IMG/VR virus record: IMGVR_UViG_3300045258_000102
Coordinates: 8,891-72,890 of that record
Length of the DNA: 64,000 bases
Reading direction: 5' to 3' (one strand)
Source of the DNA: a virus
The translations under genes and the position numbers were made by a program. This document shows, piece after piece, positions 7,931 to 20,919 of the stretch. Under the pieces are notes generated by a model. The model was not told the origin of the DNA, ran no database searches, and was given only the letters and a program-made list of their open reading frames with translations. Numbering within the stretch: position 1 is the stretch's first letter; each line of letters begins with the position of its first letter.

Positions 7931-9507
7931 CAGTACGTGTAGATTTCGATTTGATTGGAGGTGCGCACGCCGGACGGGATATTCGGCGAGCCCAGCGTTC
8001 CAGTCGTGCCGTCGGCCCAGCGCGTCGGGCGGCTCGAAGCGCCACGGAGGGTGATCCTATTCGCGGTCAGCGCGATGCCGTCTTCGACGTAAAAGCCGTT
8101 GGTGTGACTGTCGTCGAGGACTACGTTGAGGTGCGTCCCGGCGAGGTGGCCAGCAACGTGGCAGGCGTGTGTCCCGCTGCCGCCGACTCGGGCGTTGATT
8201 TGCTGGCACTGCAACGTGTCGGAGGCGTTGCTTCCGATCAGCAAGCCGTTGCCGGACGTAGTGTCGATATAGGCCGATGGTAGGTCGAGCCGGTCGGCGT
8301 AGGTGCCGATGACCACCGAGTAGCCAGTCGGATTGGGGTCGCCGCCGTCGGCAGTCGTCGTGCTGTTGTTGATGTGGATGGCCGCGACGTAGCAGTTAGG
8401 GGCCATGATCCGCGCATCGCAGTGGCTGTTGCTGAAGGCCCGTACCGAGGCGCCGATAATACTTCCCGCAGCCGTTTCAGCGACATCCAAGCCGATACCG
8501 GAATTTTCGAGCTCCCAATTCCCGTCGCCGATAGTTCCGGCCCCTGACAGCAGCATGGCCGCGATTCCGCAGCCGAAGTTGTGATTTTTTCCGACCTGGA
8601 TGGCGTTGCCGAGTAGCAACATGCCGTAGTCTCGGCAGCCCTGTGAGGTGTGGTTATCGGTTACCGCATCGGTCGCCGCGATCGTCAAGCCGCACAAGGA
8701 ATGGCGAACCGTAGTATTCTCAATATGTATTTTTTCATGGTCCAGCGGCGCGAAGTTGGCCGATTGCGTGGCGGGGTCCAGCGCGTAACTGGCGTAGATT
8801 CCGTGCCCCGGAAAGCCGGTCAAAATGAGGTTCTGGATGAGCGCCGCCGACGCCTCGAATGCCAGCCCATCGCACGCATACTTGCGTGTCGTCTCAAACG
8901 CAAAGTTGGAGCTAATTCTAGGATTCGGGTCGGCGCAGAGCAGCCAGTTCCGAACCGTCGGACAGCAAATGCCACCCTGCGGAAAGTACCCGTTGGCGTT
9001 GATCGCCACGTCCGAGCTAACGACCGCGACATCGTTGTAGAGCCGCGACAGTGCCAGCGATGTTGCGCCAGCGGCAGCGGCAGCGGTTAGCACAAGGTAG
9101 CCGGCGGGAAACTTGATCTGGAAACCGGCCGGAAGAGCGCGGTCGATCGCGGAGACCGCCAGCGTGGCCGTCGGAGCGCCAGCAGTGAACGTGTGCGAGG
9201 CGCCGGCTGTGACCAAGAGATTGTAGTAGCCGTCCTTGATGAGCGCGTTGGGCGAGGGAACCATGCAGCCGCCATCGACAGATGGGGGCGTGCACATCGA
9301 CTCGCTGGCGATGAGGATGGAGTTGAAGCCGGCGCTGCCTTCGATCAGGCAGCCGGACTCCATGGGGATCGGGGACGTACGGTAGTCTGAGAGGGCTTGG
9401 AGATTGGCCCGCAGCGTCGCGTCGTCGATCCCGTGGAAATTCGTGTTCGGAAACGACGGCCTGATCGTTTTCAGGATTCTGTCGGCGTTGTCTGCGGCAT
9501 CGAACAC
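7930..9507 (-). CDS. Tailspike / right-handed beta-helix (pectin-lyase-like) depolymerase candidate
   Basis: N/G/A/I-rich repeats such as IQNLILTGFPGHGI, IENTTVRHSLCGL and CRDYGMLL. Confidence 0.6.
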   Translation of the reverse strand: MFDAADNADRILKTIRPSFPNTNFHGIDDATLRANLQALSDYRTSPIPMESGCLIEGSAGFNSILIASESMCTPPSVDGGCMVPSPNALIKDGYYNLLVTAGASHTFTAGAPTATLAVSAIDRALPAGFQIKFPAGYLVLTAAAAAGATSLALSRLYNDVAVVSSDVAINANGYFPQGGICCPTVRNWLLCADPNPRISSNFAFETTRKYACDGLAFEASAALIQNLILTGFPGHGIYASYALDPATQSANFAPLDHEKIHIENTTVRHSLCGLTIAATDAVTDNHTSQGCRDYGMLLLGNAIQVGKNHNFGCGIAAMLLSGAGTIGDGNWELENSGIGLDVAETAAGSIIGASVRAFSNSHCDARIMAPNCYVAAIHINNSTTTADGGDPNPTGYSVVIGTYADRLDLPSAYIDTTSGNGLLIGSNASDTLQCQQINARVGGSGTHACHVAGHLAGTHLNVVLDDSHTNGFYVEDGIALTANRITLRGASSRPTRWADGTTGTLGSPNIPSGVRTSNQIEIYTY

Positions 9508-14093: not shown

Positions 14094-15887
14094 CTACGCC
14101 CCTGCCGCCGGCGCGGCGGTCGCCTGCAATTCGGCCGGCTGCTGCGTCAAACCCATTAAGTGGCTAATTAAGACTTTGCTCTTTCCAGCTTCTGTCGCGC
14201 CAGAAGTGTTCACGCGGTTGTACGTCCGCGTCGTGTTCTGCGGCATCGCCGGCGGGTCAACTGGTCCGCGCTCGGGGTACTGCTCGCCTTGGGTGTAAAC
14301 ATTGATCCGCGCGATTTCCGGCGTGTGTAGGTAACGCGCGCATGTCTTGTCAAAGAATTCCCAATCAACCGTCTGGCCTTGCTGCATTCGCATTGGCAAC
14401 GACGGCATGAGCACTTGCTCGACCCACTGGATGAGCGACTGTGCTTTCTCCGTTGGCGACCGCGCCGGCTCAGAGAACGGATTGACTTTGAAGTTGTAGT
14501 CGAAGAAGCGGCCCTTCTTTTGGTCTTGCGTAAACCGAATCGGAATCGAGTACGGCGTCCCTTCGATACTCTTGAGCAAGTTGTAATCTGATAGCGGGTC
14601 TGTCCACAGCCACCAGGCCATGCTTTGCAGTGCACCGGTGCGGAACTCCGACACGGTCTCTTGCATATCACGCACTTGGCTACTCGCGCTATTGGCGAGT
14701 AGCTCATCCTGGCCGACAGTCCGACTCTGCGCTCCGAGTCCGGCAAGAGAGCTGAGGTTGCCGCCGAAGTAGTCGGCGAGCGCTTTGGCCTGTAGCGCCA
14801 TCGCGAGCGTTTTATCGTTCGCGCCGCCGTACGTGTATTCCTCACATTTGCCGTTTCCCTCGATGTAGATTGCCTGCCCATCTTCCGACTCGACAATTCT
14901 CTCACCGTCGTCCGCTGCGCTGCCCGGGACCGCCAGGATCGACTTCTGCCGATCGGCTTGCTGCGACGCCTTCACAAAATTTCGGTTCGTGATGTCGTGC
15001 AAATCCATCAGGCCGCCGATGAACCCAGTCGGGATGACGTTGCCCGGCACTCGCCCGATGCAACAGTCGTGATAAGGCCCGCGATCGGGACCTTCCCAGT
15101 TGAAATCATCGAGCGGGAGCCACGGCTGGTTGTCGACGCGAACAATAATTCGGTTTTCGAATGGCAGCCACAACTCCTGCAAAATCAAGTCGTCCTCGTA
15201 GTCATCGACGCGCGGGGTGTTGCCTTGGCTGAGCGACTCCGCGTGCCGGTCCATCGAATCTCCGGGCCGCCAATTAAAGTCTTGGCCGGCGGACTTCGGG
15301 ATTTTGTCGCGAATTGCTTTGCTGAATGTTTTGTTGTAGACGACCCACTCGCGCGGAACTGAGTAGCGATGACCGATGTAACGCTGCTCCTGCCAGCTTT
15401 TAGCCCGCATGTCGAGAATCGCGTCGGCCAGCAGTACTCGCTGGGCAAAAATATGGCCGGCACTGCGCAGGTAATCCTCTCCGCCGTCTGGCGTATCTTT
15501 GACGGTAATCCCGACTTTCATAATGCCCATCTTCAGGAGGGAGTCTAGGATCGTGCCGTTGGAAGAATCTTCAAAGCTGGTGCGGCGAATTTCTTCGTTG
15601 AGCGCCAGTTCCATGTCAGCCGCGCAGGGCTGCAGGTCTTTGTACGGGGTGTCGCACATGGATTGCAGGCCATGCGAACTTAGCTCCCGGTGAATGATCC
15701 GCAGCGCTAGCTCGGCCATGTTGATCGGCGTTGGCGTCGAAGAGCCGTCGTCGCCGTACTGCTGGCCGACAATCTGCTTGATATGCGAAACGACTTGCTT
15801 TTCGTGAGGCCGTTTTCTCTCGTCGCTCCACTGAATGGACTGGTCGAGCTTGGCCAAGTCTTGCAGATTTTGCGGATCGAACGGCAT
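14094..15887 (-). CDS. Portal protein (P22-like)
   Basis: 597 aa directly after terL; GIMKVG, LQELW and DLHDITNR-type motifs. Confidence 0.85.
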   Translation of the reverse strand: MPFDPQNLQDLAKLDQSIQWSDERKRPHEKQVVSHIKQIVGQQYGDDGSSTPTPINMAELALRIIHRELSSHGLQSMCDTPYKDLQPCAADMELALNEEIRRTSFEDSSNGTILDSLLKMGIMKVGITVKDTPDGGEDYLRSAGHIFAQRVLLADAILDMRAKSWQEQRYIGHRYSVPREWVVYNKTFSKAIRDKIPKSAGQDFNWRPGDSMDRHAESLSQGNTPRVDDYEDDLILQELWLPFENRIIVRVDNQPWLPLDDFNWEGPDRGPYHDCCIGRVPGNVIPTGFIGGLMDLHDITNRNFVKASQQADRQKSILAVPGSAADDGERIVESEDGQAIYIEGNGKCEEYTYGGANDKTLAMALQAKALADYFGGNLSSLAGLGAQSRTVGQDELLANSASSQVRDMQETVSEFRTGALQSMAWWLWTDPLSDYNLLKSIEGTPYSIPIRFTQDQKKGRFFDYNFKVNPFSEPARSPTEKAQSLIQWVEQVLMPSLPMRMQQGQTVDWEFFDKTCARYLHTPEIARINVYTQGEQYPERGPVDPPAMPQNTTRTYNRVNTSGATEAGKSKVLISHLMGLTQQPAELQATAAPAAGA

Positions 15888-15939: not shown

Positions 15940-17766
15940 TCAAGTTGGCCAGATGCCGATGGGGCGTTCGCCGCCCTGCTTCATTAGCTTTTGCGCCTTC
16001 TGTCGTCGCCACTCAAACGAACCCTCGGGCGGCTTCCGATCTTCCTTCTCGCTCCGCTTGCGGATCTCACTGAACGCGCGCACGGCGAGCGCGTCGGCAA
16101 TCACCATGTCGCCGTGGTTCTCGCCTTTGGCCGACGGGTCGGGAGTGCTTTTGCTGCGAGCGTGGATAATGCTGCCGTCCGTGTCGGTCACGTACTGCAG
16201 GCATTCACGCAGCGCAGCCTCGGAGCGGTTGAAGATCGATTGCTGCTTGAGCGCGACGAGGTACGAGTCGATGAGCGTCCGCTTCGTGTCTTTGTTGGTC
16301 CAGAAACCAGGCCGGTTGGTGCGTTCTTTGGCGTAGTCGGTCTCGTCCGACCGGCGGTAGAAGAAGCGGCGGTAGCCGCTGTCGACGATGACTTTGCCAA
16401 ACGCGGCGCCTGGCCCGTTGGCCTCCCAGATGATAAACGCGTCGCCGAGCCAATAGGCCATGGCGAGCACGTACTGCGCGAAGTCAGCCGGAAACACCGC
16501 ATTGGACGTGAACTGGGCGATTTTCTGGCCGGTGCTGACCTGCCAGGCGGCCGCGACCGAGTTGCTCGACTTTTCGGTGCCGCCGCCCTGCGCGATGTCG
16601 GCGCCAATCACGATGTCCGACCAGTGCGAACGCGGACCGCGGTCGGGATCCGGGTCAAACCAAATCTGAAAATGCCCATCTGGCCGCTCAATCCATTCCG
16701 GTTTCTTCCAGCCGTCGGGGAAGACGAGCTCGCCGGTGTCTTTCGGCTTCGGCTTGATGGCGTATTTCTTGATCTGCGTTTCGATGACGTCGACCGGGAA
16801 GTACTGCCAGCCGCTCTTGAGATAGCCGATGTTCCAATTCCGCGCCATGTACTGCGGGTTCGGCGCGTCAACTTCGGCCGCGTCGTAGGCTGGGCTGCGC
16901 GTCTCGCCGTCGAGGATGAACTTGTAGCTGCGCGGGAACTTGTATTCTTTGTCGATGACGTCGAGCACGTAGCCGCCGCCTTCGTCGTCGTGCACTGACC
17001 GGTACATTCCGGCGCCTTTGATCGGGTGATCGTGCCAGTGCAACCGAATCACGCGGTCCGGACTATTGGCCATCAGCTTTTCGCGGATGTCGTAGTACGC
17101 GCCGCTGGCGCCTTCCGGCGTGCCGCCGAGGATTAGACAGTCGGTTGCCTCGGCGCAGGCGTCGATGATCGCGTAGTCGTCTTCGATCGCCGGGAACTCG
17201 TCGATAAAGATAGCGGTTCGGCGACCACCGCGGCCGAAATCGGTGTTGGTCGACTCGCCGTCGATCTTCGAGTTGTTCGTGAGATTCTCGAAATGCAGAT
17301 TCTTGCGTCCTATCGGCGGCACCATCCATTTCGGTAGCCGCGCGAGCAGGTAGTCGATCTTCGAGAACAGCGAATCATCGTCGCCTTCGACCGCCTTTTC
17401 CTTGCGGCTGCCGCACAGGAAGGTCCGATTCGAACGGAACAAAAAGTACCAAACAAAGACCGCTAGGATCAGCCAGGTCATTCCCATCGTCCTGGACTTT
17501 TCCAGCAGCAGTCGGTGCTTTCCGATCGCGCTGATGATCTTGAGCGCGGCGCGCTCTTGTGCTGGCCACAAAACGAAGAGCCGATTGGGGTTGTCTGGAT
17601 AGCTCTTCGGATTGAAAGTCCAGCAGTACGTGTTGATAAAATACACCGGATCGCGCGAGCACCTGATCCATTGCTCCTCTTGGAAGTCGACGTCGTGCTC
17701 CGCCCGCTCGAGGATCGCACGGCGATAGCGAGAATTCTTTTGCAGATTTGAGGGCGCGGCAATCAT
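15940..17766 (-). CDS. terL: Terminase large subunit
   Basis: Walker A-like EKSRTMGMTW, Walker B IFIDEF, nuclease motifs IGADIAQG and HGDMVIADAL. Confidence 0.95.
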   Translation of the reverse strand: MIAAPSNLQKNSRYRRAILERAEHDVDFQEEQWIRCSRDPVYFINTYCWTFNPKSYPDNPNRLFVLWPAQERAALKIISAIGKHRLLLEKSRTMGMTWLILAVFVWYFLFRSNRTFLCGSRKEKAVEGDDDSLFSKIDYLLARLPKWMVPPIGRKNLHFENLTNNSKIDGESTNTDFGRGGRRTAIFIDEFPAIEDDYAIIDACAEATDCLILGGTPEGASGAYYDIREKLMANSPDRVIRLHWHDHPIKGAGMYRSVHDDEGGGYVLDVIDKEYKFPRSYKFILDGETRSPAYDAAEVDAPNPQYMARNWNIGYLKSGWQYFPVDVIETQIKKYAIKPKPKDTGELVFPDGWKKPEWIERPDGHFQIWFDPDPDRGPRSHWSDIVIGADIAQGGGTEKSSNSVAAAWQVSTGQKIAQFTSNAVFPADFAQYVLAMAYWLGDAFIIWEANGPGAAFGKVIVDSGYRRFFYRRSDETDYAKERTNRPGFWTNKDTKRTLIDSYLVALKQQSIFNRSEAALRECLQYVTDTDGSIIHARSKSTPDPSAKGENHGDMVIADALAVRAFSEIRKRSEKEDRKPPEGSFEWRRQKAQKLMKQGGERPIGIWPT

Positions 17767-18668
17767 GCGACGTCTGAGTCCAGCTCGGCGATTTTCTCGG
17801 CCTCTTCAAATTCCCGATCGAAGGAATTCAGCATTTCCATCTGCCGCCGACCATCGTCGGCATAGAGCGCCGCCTGCTCCATCAGTTTCTTGTCAGGGAT
17901 CGTCTTCGAGATGAACGTCGTGAGCATCCCGGCGTAGTTGCCGTCGCTCGCGCGGGCGTGACGCAACATGCGAAGCGCCGAGCGACCTGGGACATCGTCG
18001 GGCACGATCTCGGCCAGTGGCGTGTCGCCCATGTTGAACGCCCAGAGTGCGGCCTCGATCGGGCTGCACTTCTTGTCGATTGGAACTTGCGCTGTCAGTT
18101 CTTCGAAGGCGCGTCGCTCAGGATTCGGCTGAGCCTGGTTCTTTTTGATTTCCCTTGGATCCGGCCCGGGCTTCGGGATTGACGGCGGCGTCGGTTCCGG
18201 CTCGACCCCGGGAATATCGCCGTTGCGCTTCGCCTGCTCAGCGATGTACTTGGCCCAGGCGGCGGTCGAGTCGAACTCGAGCGGATCGCCATTGAGTGGC
18301 TTCATCTGCATCCAGGCGAATCTTGGGCACCAGTTGCTGTCGTACCCTTCATCGAGCAGTTTCTGCCGGAGCGCGAGGTACTCGTCGTAGCGACCCTCCG
18401 CGTGCAGGCGTTTGTTGATCGCCGTCCGCCAATCCCGCTTTTTGAATCCTACTTTTTCCTTCGGAGCTTCCCCAGCGTTTTCGCCAGGTTGGCCTCGCGC
18501 TTGGTCTTCGTGCTCGCCGTCGAGCCCTCGGCTGTCACTTTGTTTGCGTACGCTGCGGTGGACATTCCCGCCGCGGCTGCCTTCTTTCGGAACGCGCCCT
18601 TGTTCTTGGTCGCTCCCGCGATCCAGTTTCTGGCCATCGAACTTCTCCTCGGGGTTGAGTGTGGACAT
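17763..18668 (-). CDS. Terminase small subunit candidate / DNA-binding protein (N-terminus uncertain)
   Basis: ATGA-coupled to terL; the first ~73 codons overlap a nested ORF in another frame. Confidence 0.55.
   Translation of the reverse strand: MSTLNPEEKFDGQKLDRGSDQEQGRVPKEGSRGGNVHRSVRKQSDSRGLDGEHEDQARGQPGENAGEAPKEKVGFKKRDWRTAINKRLHAEGRYDEYLALRQKLLDEGYDSNWCPRFAWMQMKPLNGDPLEFDSTAAWAKYIAEQAKRNGDIPGVEPEPTPPSIPKPGPDPREIKKNQAQPNPERRAFEELTAQVPIDKKCSPIEAALWAFNMGDTPLAEIVPDDVPGRSALRMLRHARASDGNYAGMLTTFISKTIPDKKLMEQAALYADDGRRQMEMLNSFDREFEEAEKIAELDSDVA
18449..18637 (-). CDS. Small highly basic phage protein (WI.GA.K.KGA...ANLAKTL family)
   Basis: GAGGAG SD 7 nt before the ATG; resembles a recurrent small K/A-rich phage protein family. 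Confidence 0.75.
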   Translation of the reverse strand: MARNWIAGATKNKGAFRKKAAAAGMSTAAYANKVTAEGSTASTKTKREANLAKTLGKLRRKK

Positions 18669-18684
18669 GATTTGTTTTCGTGGG

Positions 18685-19152
18685 CTAATTGGCCACAGTT
18701 TCCAGTGGCGCGAAATCAGCCAGCGCTCTGTAGAACGCGGTGTCGCGATCGATGCCGCCCTTCAATAGTCTCCACTTGGCTTTGCGGAAGTCTTCGTAAC
18801 GTCCCTCGGCCTTGAGCCGTCGCGTTGCGTGCCACTTCGGCTCTCGTTCGAGATCGCCGGGCTTCCATTTGCAGGTCTTCTCCCAAGGCTTGAGCTTGAG
18901 CGGTGGCTCTTCGACGATGGGCTCAGGCTCGGGCTCCGGTTCAGCAGCTACCGCGGCAGCCGCCCGCTCGAGATTGTCCTTGTACTTCCGCACAGGTGTC
19001 GTGATTGCCCGCTCCCAATCCCAGCCTTGCTTGTTGACACGGTGCAGCACGCACGCCTGCGAAATGCCGTACTCCTTGCACCACTCGAAGAGCCGCATCT
19101 CGATGTCGTCGATTTTGACGAGGCGCGCGTTGACTGGGACTGCTGTCGGCAT
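18685..19152 (-). CDS. DNA-binding protein (NUMOD/HTH-like N-terminus) with RLxAEGRY domain
   Basis: LFEWCKEYGIS...RV.KQGWDWERAITTP motif; C-terminal domain paralogous to the 17763..18668 protein. Confidence 0.65.
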   Translation of the reverse strand: MPTAVPVNARLVKIDDIEMRLFEWCKEYGISQACVLHRVNKQGWDWERAITTPVRKYKDNLERAAAAVAAEPEPEPEPIVEEPPLKLKPWEKTCKWKPGDLEREPKWHATRRLKAEGRYEDFRKAKWRLLKGGIDRDTAFYRALADFAPLETVAN

Positions 19153-19166
19153 GGTCGCCTCGACGA

Positions 19167-19649
19167 CTAAGAAATCTCTTCGACGATACAGTTTCCCGAG
19201 CATGTGATCGCGTCGGCCGGCGCAGACACCGAGACGATGAGTGCCTCTCCACGGCCGAAGACCGGTCGATCCTCGCCAAGTGGTAAAAATAAATATCCAG
19301 CCTGCTCGTTCATCGCCTCTGCGCGGATTGTCGTCAGCGTGCCGCCCCCAGCCGTCGCCTGCGCCGTATTCATCGTCGTCGCGGTAAGAACGGATGGCGG
19401 ATCGATCGAGCTGTGCGGCGCGGGCGTCACAGCCGTGCCGCCCGATCCAGCCGTGTGACCAACGCCACGCTTGAGCAGCAAGTTGAGTCCCTCAGCCGCA
19501 GCGTCGCCCACGTCGGACGACTGCCCCAGCGTAATCTCGTGCACGATGAAGGAGTAACCTCCGACTGCCGGAGACTTGATTTCAAAGGCGTCGAACGCCG
19601 CCGCAGGACTGACAACGGCGGTGAACGGAATCGAGTATTTGCGTCCCAT
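19167..19649 (-). CDS. Virion structural protein
   Basis: A/G/T-rich beta protein; distant paralogue of 20923..21435. Confidence 0.65.
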   Translation of the reverse strand: MGRKYSIPFTAVVSPAAAFDAFEIKSPAVGGYSFIVHEITLGQSSDVGDAAAEGLNLLLKRGVGHTAGSGGTAVTPAPHSSIDPPSVLTATTMNTAQATAGGGTLTTIRAEAMNEQAGYLFLPLGEDRPVFGRGEALIVSVSAPADAITCSGNCIVEEIS

Positions 19650-19653
19650 AGTT

Positions 19654-20919
19654 TTATATTCCTCGTGCTAAAAGTTTGCGCCGTAGCATCCGTGGTCCGC
19701 CCAACGCTGCGCCAGATCCTGGCGTCTCGACCACACCCAGCGCATAAACTGTAGGCGCCTCGCCTGCCGTTGCTAGAATTGTCGTGATTTCAGGCAGATA
19801 GAAGCCGAGATTTGGGCAACTGTTATCATCCTTCACGCACCCTAGCAAAATTGAGTGTCCATCAATCACCATCATTACCGGCGTCGCACTGTCGCCAGAT
19901 ATGATCCGTTCGGATGGGTCTGCCGCTGGTGTATAGCCTACGCCGACATCGTTATCCGTCTGGTCCGAGTCGATGATTTGGCCCTTGAAGACGCGGGATT
20001 GGCTGATCTCAACAGCTAGAAGTCCACGCACGCTCGACGGATTCGACAGGATTCCGGCTGGTGCCACCGTAGTTACTGGCGAGCTGAGCTTATAAATCAA
20101 GATGTCGCGAAACTGATCGCCCACGAACCACATGGTTTGGTTTGGGATGCAAGAGCAGGTGCGAGTGACGCGGTTGCCGTCCGGCTGCATGAACTCGATA
20201 GTTGTGGACGCCAATTGAAAATGATTAGAGCCAACACAGAAGCTCGGCGAGATCAGCGAAGGACAGTCGAGGTTTTGGCGTGGATTAACGCCGAGCGTTA
20301 CGCCCGTGGAGAAAAACCCAAAGTCGATGCTCGCTAGCGGTCCAGTGCCGTGCCAATGCGGCGGATCGGGCATCTCCTGCTGTGTGTCGTCCAGGTGTTC
20401 CGTGAATAGATCGAGTCCACGGATGGCCGTGAGGTCTTGAACGGTCGTAAGAGCCGTCGCACTCGGAGCCGACACCGGGGTTAAAATATCCAAATAACCG
20501 GGGCTGATAACCCACGGGTGCGAGTTGTCAACTTCTAGCCAATGGTTGTAGGAGCTCGGTTGCAGGTCCGCTCTGACTGTTGTTGACAAACCACCGTTCG
20601 TGGCGGTGACCATGCAGGTGATCACTTTGCCAACGTCGGCGGCCTGAACTGCGTAGTTGTAGGGATCGGTGCTGACTAACACGGAGTTAGTTCCAGAATG
20701 ATCGTCGGCCCGATACCAGGCTTTCGTGATGGTTCCAACCGATGGCTGTCCGTCGCTGCAAAATAATGTGTGGATAATCGTATCGACGTTGCTCGCGGCT
20801 CGACTAGGAAAGCCAAATCCCTGCAATTTTGGGGTAACAGGCCACGACGGTGCCCGTAGCGTTATTTGAAACGCTAGGATGTGCGGCCTAAATGCTTGTC
20901 TGCGTCCGAAGCGTGCCAT
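19654..20919 (-). CDS. Virion protein with Ig-like and trypsin-like serine protease domains
   Basis: YAVQAADVGKVITCMVTATN (Ig-like); LISP..CVGSNHF, RDILI and IISGDSATP give a His-Asp-Ser order. Confidence 0.6.
   Translation of the reverse strand: MARFGRRQAFRPHILAFQITLRAPSWPVTPKLQGFGFPSRAASNVDTIIHTLFCSDGQPSVGTITKAWYRADDHSGTNSVLVSTDPYNYAVQAADVGKVITCMVTATNGGLSTTVRADLQPSSYNHWLEVDNSHPWVISPGYLDILTPVSAPSATALTTVQDLTAIRGLDLFTEHLDDTQQEMPDPPHWHGTGPLASIDFGFFSTGVTLGVNPRQNLDCPSLISPSFCVGSNHFQLASTTIEFMQPDGNRVTRTCSCIPNQTMWFVGDQFRDILIYKLSSPVTTVAPAGILSNPSSVRGLLAVEISQSRVFKGQIIDSDQTDNDVGVGYTPAADPSERIISGDSATPVMMVIDGHSILLGCVKDDNSCPNLGFYLPEITTILATAGEAPTVYALGVVETPGSGAALGGPRMLRRKLLARGI

Follow-up and report, generated by a model that had tools for sequence, protein, structure and literature searches.

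Ahead of the gene for TerL, the large terminase (15940–17766), the viral record IMGVR_UViG_3300045258_000102 (72,890 bases, with direct terminal repeats) poses the question of how ribosomes reach the reading frame of a conserved gene that lacks a start codon at the usual place. In the 64,000-nucleotide stretch analysed here (positions 8,891–72,890 of the record, hereafter designated the window, whose numbering is used throughout), this gene forms the greater part of an open reading frame (ORF) of 301 residues (long ORF; 17763–18668, from ATG 18668–18666 to TGA 17763), which wholly encloses a second ORF of 62 residues (nested ORF; 18449–18637, from ATG 18637 to TAG 18451–18449). All features of the locus are on the minus strand and are described 5' to 3' on that strand. 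Both frames are open and each has a start codon, namely ATG 18668 for the long ORF and GAGGAG-N7-ATG 18637 for the nested one. We found that the two frames encode members of two real protein families, and the locus may tentatively be regarded as an overprinted pair, one gene embedded in the other, with the long ORF presumably read from ATG 18668 in coupling with its neighbours; on the sequence data, we put this reading a little below an even chance.

The nested gene and the conserved body of the long ORF

The preliminary description of this DNA had pointed to the nested ORF inside the 301-residue one and to its GAGGAG Shine–Dalgarno (SD) sequence, and direct reading bore out both. The ribosome site consists of GAGGAG (18650–18645), which in the long frame forms codons 7–8 (Glu-Glu), a 7-nt spacer, and ATG 18637. 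The encoded protein matches phrog_20603 (hypothetical) over its full length, with residues 4–61 aligned to positions 2–59 of the 59-position profile (E 8e-10), and matches the profile of its own family with an E value of 1.1e-27. The alignment of this family (31 sequences) follows the pattern WIxGAxKxxGAF..AGMSTAAYAxKV..KxANLAKTLGKLRKK. Relatives of the small gene were found at 48 IMG/VR loci (34–75% identity, confirmed by tblastn), and a word-indexed search gave 58 related stand-alone proteins of 56–77 residues, up to 80% identical and all hypothetical; in the ESM Atlas, the nested protein scores 0.96 with ~64-residue clusters of Uroviricota (tailed phages). In a codon model trained on the long genes of the phage, the nested frame scores −3.868 per codon as coding against −4.008 and −4.567 as off-frame, with a G+C content at third codon positions (GC3) of 0.81. 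The AlphaFold (AF2) model has four helices, with a predicted local distance difference test score (pLDDT) of 74. A search of GenBank phages with the small protein gave no match, and a Foldseek search of its model against the PDB returned nothing. Judged by its sequence, the nested ORF is a real, autonomous gene. It appears not to have been called by gene callers, which kept the 301-residue ORF; in the stored protein collection, the gene is present only in the 301-residue form (P0002), and the 62-residue protein is absent from the hits of its relatives.

As to what the small protein does, a NikA-like similarity is weak (20.7 bits, below the cut-off of 27), and the Pfam fusellovirus VP2 family matches 6 of the 31 family members (best E 7.5e-6; 0.87 in the Atlas); both may be taken as weak indications that it binds DNA. 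Longer proteins, too, contain the domain, in 38 forms of 111–1324 residues. At the IMG/VR loci L008–L011, L013–L018, and L027, it resides in highly charged proteins of 750–910 residues, internally in the L008 and L015 types and N-terminally in L027. Among 10 ORFs scanned downstream of the small gene in its relatives, six matched no PHROG, one matched a family of unknown function, and three matched virion-structural or tail-fibre families; none of the 10 had a link to terminase. This distribution suggests a modular domain, possibly virion-internal and DNA-associated.

The part of the long ORF that follows the nested stop, a body of 229 residues (P0001; 17766–18452), belongs to an unnamed family found directly before TerL (hereafter the pre-TerL family). 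An exhaustive HMMER scan gave 171 proteins at E ≤ 1e-3 and 59 at E ≤ 1e-10, the closest relative other than the protein itself being P0003 at 48% identity. Family alignments show an N-domain with an N-x-R-L-H-A-E-G-R motif, a Pro-rich linker, and a C-domain ending in DDGR; the body shares all three, including the W..VPxxGAL..IPDK..DDGR pattern of the C-domain, and the spot directly before TerL. It keeps all invariant and near-invariant residues of the family over 229 codons without a stop, and its codon statistics are clearly coding. The AF2 model of the body has a pLDDT of 89, and its first helix begins at residue 5 of P0001. The preliminary description had called the protein TerS-like, with regard to which the position holds up: the gene precedes TerL with an ATGA overlap, and the same order is found at the related locus L050. 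As to its identity, no Pfam family was found at E ≤ 1, no function-named PHROG family matched, and Foldseek against the PDB gave nothing at E ≤ 0.001. BFVD yielded three matches at E ≤ 0.001, all of them unnamed viral proteins, a PDB sequence profile search yielded only spurious rows of repeat proteins, and the best ESM Atlas score, 0.79, is a lead only. The label thus has its basis in gene position only.

What sets the gene in the window apart is its start. Among the 123 family members matched from profile position 20 or earlier (122 without the window's own protein), the N-terminal overhang before the family profile has a median of 0 and a maximum of 35 residues with the window's protein left out, and the 301-residue ORF has one of 71. 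In most of 78 sequences listed, the initiator Met lies 9–33 residues before the RLH motif, typically 9–20. The usual start point of the family therefore falls exactly at the stop codon of the nested gene, where the window has no canonical start codon. Indeed, as had been stated in the preliminary description, no ATG, GTG, or TTG lies between the nested stop and the RLHAEGRY domain; between the preceding stop of the long frame (TGA 18764–18762) and the conserved domain, ATG 18668 is the only canonical start, and the next one, ATG 18311, lies within the domain. Chance does not account for the missing start at the position used by relatives. Since the gene is a conserved family member without a canonical start at the family position, something unusual must bring ribosomes into the long frame.

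No relative carrying both genes was found in searches with the body among viral contigs, GenBank phages, metagenome contigs (two loci, L050 and L051), and genome contigs. A search based on TerL yielded four loci at 34% identity, with neither family present in any of them.

The relation of the two frames at their junction was read directly from the sequence and is as the preliminary description had given it: the nested ORF ends in AGG AAA AAG TAG (18460–18449), and the long ORF, reading ..CCG AAG GAA AAA GTA GGA.., is its −1 frame. One extra A in the homopolymer would equal a −1 shift, so that an assembly or sequencing indel in the run of five A residues could mimic the arrangement, the real sequence then being one fused gene. 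However, Logan contigs from two soil-metagenome runs, each belonging to a different study, align to the window with 0 gaps and 0 differing letters. Run X1 (depth ~11, possibly the source sample) spans 17300–19700, and one contig of run X2 (depth 4) spans 18143–18667. As the contigs of the two studies agree base for base across the junction, being identical over 18143–18667 or more, an indel error is ruled out; moreover, no fused homologue of either family was found, and we give this explanation almost no credence.

The identical sequence in soil runs of two studies also indicates that the phage or its host is not restricted to one sample. None of the runs listed for this stretch was an RNA run, which has no bearing on expression. 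In the interval 17600–19400, no Rfam match was found at E ≤ 1, and no intron or other RNA element was recognised. Two long antisense open frames on the plus strand, 18402–18815 (137 residues) and 18412–18768 (118 residues), cross the same stretch and are explained most simply as by-products of the missing T at third positions of the coding strand. Two further ways around the nested stop were considered and rejected. Readthrough of the TAG, or another genetic code, would continue the nested frame as DSKSGIGGRR.., which is not the domain; because the long and nested frames differ, recoding of the TAG cannot join the nested gene to the body. Transcriptional slippage needs longer A runs than the five residues present here.

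Routes into the long frame

In the embedded-pair reading, translation of the pre-TerL gene would begin at ATG 18668, and the ribosomes would probably be those that have just finished the upstream ORF, whose TAG (18687–18685) lies 16 nt away. The product would be the 301-residue protein, in which the first ~72 residues, encoded by the extension that overprints the nested gene (18453–18668), are hydrophilic, probably disordered, and without counterpart in the family. The nested small basic gene, which lies in frame +1 when the long ORF is taken as reference, would be translated separately, through a strong ribosome site of its own. The extension is of low complexity, only 8 of its 72 residues being Ile, Leu, Val, Phe, Met, Trp, Tyr, or Cys, and no homologue of it was found. 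Because the N-terminal tails of the family are variable and the fold of the body starts only at residue 5, such an extension is plausibly tolerated. Starts without an SD are common in this phage: by crude calling, 35 of 84 ORFs lack an SD match of at least 4 nt, including portal and TerL, whose starts coincide with the upstream stop or lie a few nt from it.

Base composition also bears on whether the long frame is translated. The nested ORF has no T-ending codon among its 62 codons (19% are A-ending), and without such codons the −1 (long) frame cannot hold a stop. An open −1 frame by itself is not rare: synonymous resampling under the codon usage of the phage left the long frame open in 9.1% of trials (P 0.09), and 174 of 670 62-codon windows taken from real genes (26%) are open in the −1 frame. 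The same holds for relatives of the small gene: no stop interrupts the −1 frame in 4 of the 6 with a locus G+C content of at least 0.61 and in 6 of the 9 at 0.52 or more, and the genes that follow have their own starts. The open −1 frame is thus best seen as a by-product of GC-rich codon use and as weak evidence of translation. The complete lack of T at third positions (T3) is a different matter. The mean T3 of the phage is 14.4%, and zero T3 given the nested protein has a P value of 4.3e-4; among 10,380 overlapping 62-codon windows from 40 genes, none has zero T3 and 0.36% have at most one T-ending codon, and the relatives L004, L006, L030, and L036 have a T3 of 3–7%. The absence of T3 could reflect selection on a translated long frame, whose extension is free of Phe, Tyr, Trp, Cys, and stop codons, or could be inherited from a low-T3 donor; it mildly favours translation of the long frame.

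Several observations weigh against initiation at ATG 18668. As noted in the preliminary description, this codon has no SD, the preceding CCCACGAAAACAAATC containing none, and its distance of 16 nt from the upstream stop compares with 4 nt or less at the other SD-less starts inspected. No other family member is so extended, the overhang of 71 residues standing against a median of 0 and a maximum of 35 in the 122 others. Within the overlap, the long frame resembles an off-frame one, with a G+C content of 0.80 at first and 0.59 at third codon positions and a log-likelihood of −3.975 as coding versus −3.882 as the +2 off-frame. The likeness of its N-terminus MSTLNPEEKF to family N-termini (MSTNPK.., MPTSNPKSAF..) is not significant, since 10.6% of 545 control N-termini score as well (p 0.11). 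A BLASTP alignment to P0003 reaches 13 residues beyond the nested stop on its upstream side (QPGEN--AGEAPKEK against QPAEVKPADQAPQPK) but is weak and of low complexity. The lack of T3 exceeds what an open frame needs (openness alone, P 0.09) and could come from a low-T3 donor. Finally, the sequences at hand include no close relative that would decide whether ATG 18668 and the overlap are conserved. The 13-residue extension toward P0003, considered as a sign of homology, was rejected as chance, because the stretch is of low complexity and its letters are fixed by the other frame, in which they encode the conserved C-terminus of the small protein.

The preliminary description had left the choice between dual coding and a programmed frameshift, of which dual coding is favoured here. 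A frameshift would occur at the A_AAG tetramer (18455–18452) within the candidate slip site G_AAA_AAG (18452–18458, the zero frame being that of the nested gene), with the TAG (18451–18449) next in the A site, and would yield a minor fusion of ~291 residues beside abundant free small protein, after the manner of IS3 OrfA/OrfAB or dnaX. The exact −1 relation and the position of the tetramer directly before the zero-frame stop speak for it, as do the lack of a canonical start near the family-typical N-terminus, an SD-like GGGGA (18473–18469) 11 nt before the AAA codon, and the occurrence of the small domain within larger proteins, such as those of L008 and L027. A_AAG is, moreover, the most shift-prone tetramer in Escherichia coli (Sharma et al. 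2014, PMC4066793). In that study, however, unstimulated tetramers shift at 0.147% against a background of 0.112%, and A_AAG reaches 5.6% only with the IS3 pseudoknot, values for E. coli that may not be those of the host. In the window, G_AAA_AAG is not a heptamer of the X_XXZ_ZZN type, because the P-site AAA would have to re-pair on GAA, and nothing downstream appears to stimulate a shift: the 90 nt that follow have a minimum free energy of −25.5, shuffled sequences averaging −26.6 (z 0.39, with 127 of 200 shuffles as good), the 201-nt context has a z of −1.05, and there is no Rfam match.

The letters of the putative signal have another explanation in the small protein itself. Both AAA AAG and CTG GGG AAG, which contains the GGGGA, encode conserved family residues (LGK..RKK), and in the relatives L040 and L042 the small gene ends in the same AGGAAAAAG followed by a stop (TAA), with the next gene beginning at an ordinary ATG that overlaps that stop. 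Judged from these codons, AAA AAG most probably is the conserved Lys-Lys C-terminus of the family and not a frameshift signal as such. Nor was a fusion of the two families seen. The pre-TerL domain is present in 0 of the 38 longer proteins with the small domain, and a scan with filters off finds the small domain in 0 of the 149 pre-TerL representatives other than the window's protein (best E 0.071). The preliminary description had asked whether G_AAA_AAG persists in relatives; as a frameshift arrangement, it is conserved nowhere, a pre-TerL family ORF being found within 3 kb of the small gene at 0 of the 48 loci. It had also held that separate genes with an ordinary start in relatives would speak against a shift. 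Such genes were found for each family separately, and no relative has the two adjacent, so that the frameshift is weakened by these relatives and no more. In addition, a rare shift would probably starve TerL, which has no SD and seems coupled to the long ORF. We therefore consider a programmed frameshift an unlikely source of the pre-TerL protein. Equally doubtful is the stricter version, in which the protein would be made only as the −1 fusion, adding a DNA-binding-like four-helix domain to it; and much the same low probability applies to the mechanism that this version would require, namely a stop-adjacent A_AAG-UAG tetramer acting without RNA structure, with two products in the manner of dnaX and IS3, acquired through capture of the mobile small gene.

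Initiation at the junction itself, by a non-canonical start codon or by termination–reinitiation, would give a product of family-typical length. An SD-like AAGGA (18462–18458) lies 4 nt before GTA 18452 and 7 nt before GGA 18449, which together with ATC 18419 and CTG 18407, located 11 and 15 codons downstream, are the candidate codons, and the family N-termini fall exactly there. The junction is also a habitual coupling point: among 34 non-redundant relatives (the 48 loci minus 11 duplicates and 3 running off the contig end, counted mechanically), the next ORF begins −1 to +8 nt from the small-gene stop in 21, often with TAATG or ATGA and in the same frame, and an ORF of at least 60 residues with an ATG, GTG, or TTG start begins between −40 and +150 of that stop in 32. 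In the window, however, no ATG, GTG, or TTG is present at this place, and no conservation argues for such a start. In E. coli (bioRxiv 10.1101/063800), AUC and CUG initiate at 1–2% of AUG, other codons are less active, and protein begun with Met at GGA was detectable; these values may not be those of the host. On this basis, the expected yield would be ~0.01–2% of AUG, far under that of a coupled AUG 200 nt upstream, and we regard a junction start as rather improbable. Still less probable is decay, in which the pre-TerL gene would have recently lost its start and be barely or not expressed, its role being dispensable or covered by the upstream ORF. The missing ordinary start and the second N-domain in the upstream ORF would fit this view, but the gene has kept all invariant and near-invariant residues and 229 stop-free codons with clearly coding statistics, TerL is coupled to its stop codon, and the identical sequence in two soil studies suggests a circulating phage. 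Because slippage and a junction start would each provide ~1% or less of a normal start, and ATG 18668 plausibly far more, the upstream ATG is favoured; minor slip or junction-start products could be made alongside the product of ATG 18668.

Neighbouring genes and a possible history

TerL is recognised by PHROG terminase families only (phrog_5989, E 2.1e-19; phrog_2, E 3.3e-12), with no Pfam match at E ≤ 1, and the 34% identity to its nearest IMG/VR relatives indicates a poorly sampled phage lineage. Its ATG overlaps the TGA of the long ORF (ATGA) and has no SD of its own. TerL output is therefore likely to require that the long ORF be translated in quantity, at a level that a rare recoding event would presumably not supply. 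The next gene (14094–15887) is labelled portal by position only.

The upstream ORF (18685–19203) encodes 172 residues from ATG 19203, but its likelier start is ATG 19152, which has a GAGG 5 nt upstream and gives 155 residues. It matches phrog_1065 (E 5.4e-10) and is composite: a helix-turn-helix (HTH)-like N-terminus is joined by a PEPEPEP linker to a diverged copy of the ~50-residue pre-TerL N-domain at the C-terminus (..RRLKAEGRYEDF..). The HTH part is 43% identical over 54 residues to a ~68-residue stand-alone HTH gene of L050, and positions 8–55 of one of the two pre-TerL profiles match its C-terminus with an E value of 4.6e-6, the other family alignment showing the same copy. Thus, the phage has two copies of the N-domain in adjacent genes.

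L050 is the sole complete related locus retrieved (L051 is incomplete), and its order is the small HTH gene, the family member P0012, a 77-residue ORF, and a TerL 51% identical to that of the window. There, P0012 has an ordinary GTG/ATG start overlapping the end of the HTH gene, and the small basic gene is absent; in the window, by contrast, the HTH gene is extended by the linker and the second N-domain, and the small gene is interposed, so that ~500 extra bases separate the HTH domain from the body. From this comparison, we infer that recombination in the packaging module may have brought in a foreign N-domain together with the small gene and removed the ordinary start, so that the gene would be left with an ATG farther upstream from which the frame is open. 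The mobile small gene, in a GC-rich version poor in T3, would have landed behind the start codon of the pre-TerL gene and ahead of its body; as versions of this kind usually have no stop in the −1 frame, the host gene would have stayed open and been read from the upstream ATG. Since the −1 frame is usually open in GC-rich relatives, an insertion of the small gene would often leave the host frame open. As to scars of the insertion, no direct repeats were found at the borders of the small gene; two short repeat families were found, both away from these borders.

Whichever route is used, the window presents a conserved packaging-module gene without the ordinary start held by all 149 other family representatives examined, and with a small gene at its 5' end. 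The case may show, as a natural experiment, by which means a phage restores expression: an upstream ATG with overprinting, frameshifting, or a non-AUG start. Should the frameshift be true, we know of no earlier recoding in a terminase-associated gene, the literature not having been searched on this point. The locus further exemplifies domain shuffling in the packaging module, in that an HTH gene acquired a second copy of the family N-domain, and the 62-residue gene inside a retained 301-residue ORF illustrates how easily small conserved embedded genes are missed in annotation.

Comparison with known systems

With phrog_20603 and its ~60-residue relatives, the nested ORF shares the whole profile and the WIxGAxKxxGAF...MSTAAYAxKV...ANLAKTLGKLRKK pattern. 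In these relatives, however, the gene stands alone or is included as a domain in virion-type proteins, with an ordinary start at the following gene, unlike the situation in the window, which among the loci examined is the only one where a gene of this type adjoins the pre-TerL family.

The A_AAG and A_AAA_AAG sites of IS3 and IS1 transposases and of dnaX (PMC4066793) resemble the junction in the A_AAG tetramer with an adjacent zero-frame stop and in the combination of a small basic upstream ORF with a larger −1-frame ORF lacking a nearby start. The window differs from these sites in that a canonical heptamer is missing, the downstream sequence folds into no significant hairpin or pseudoknot, and the arrangement is not conserved; moreover, its motif is explained by the conserved Lys-Lys, and an in-frame upstream ATG is available for the −1-frame ORF.

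A parallel to the embedded-pair reading is found in Rz/Rz1 of phage lambda, an embedded gene pair in which both genes are read from one mRNA. In both systems, a longer ORF encloses the whole of a small gene, which has a ribosome site of its own and lies in the +1 frame relative to that ORF. In the window, the embedded gene is the old and conserved partner, whereas the overprinted stretch of the long ORF is novel and family-less, its translation being predicted.

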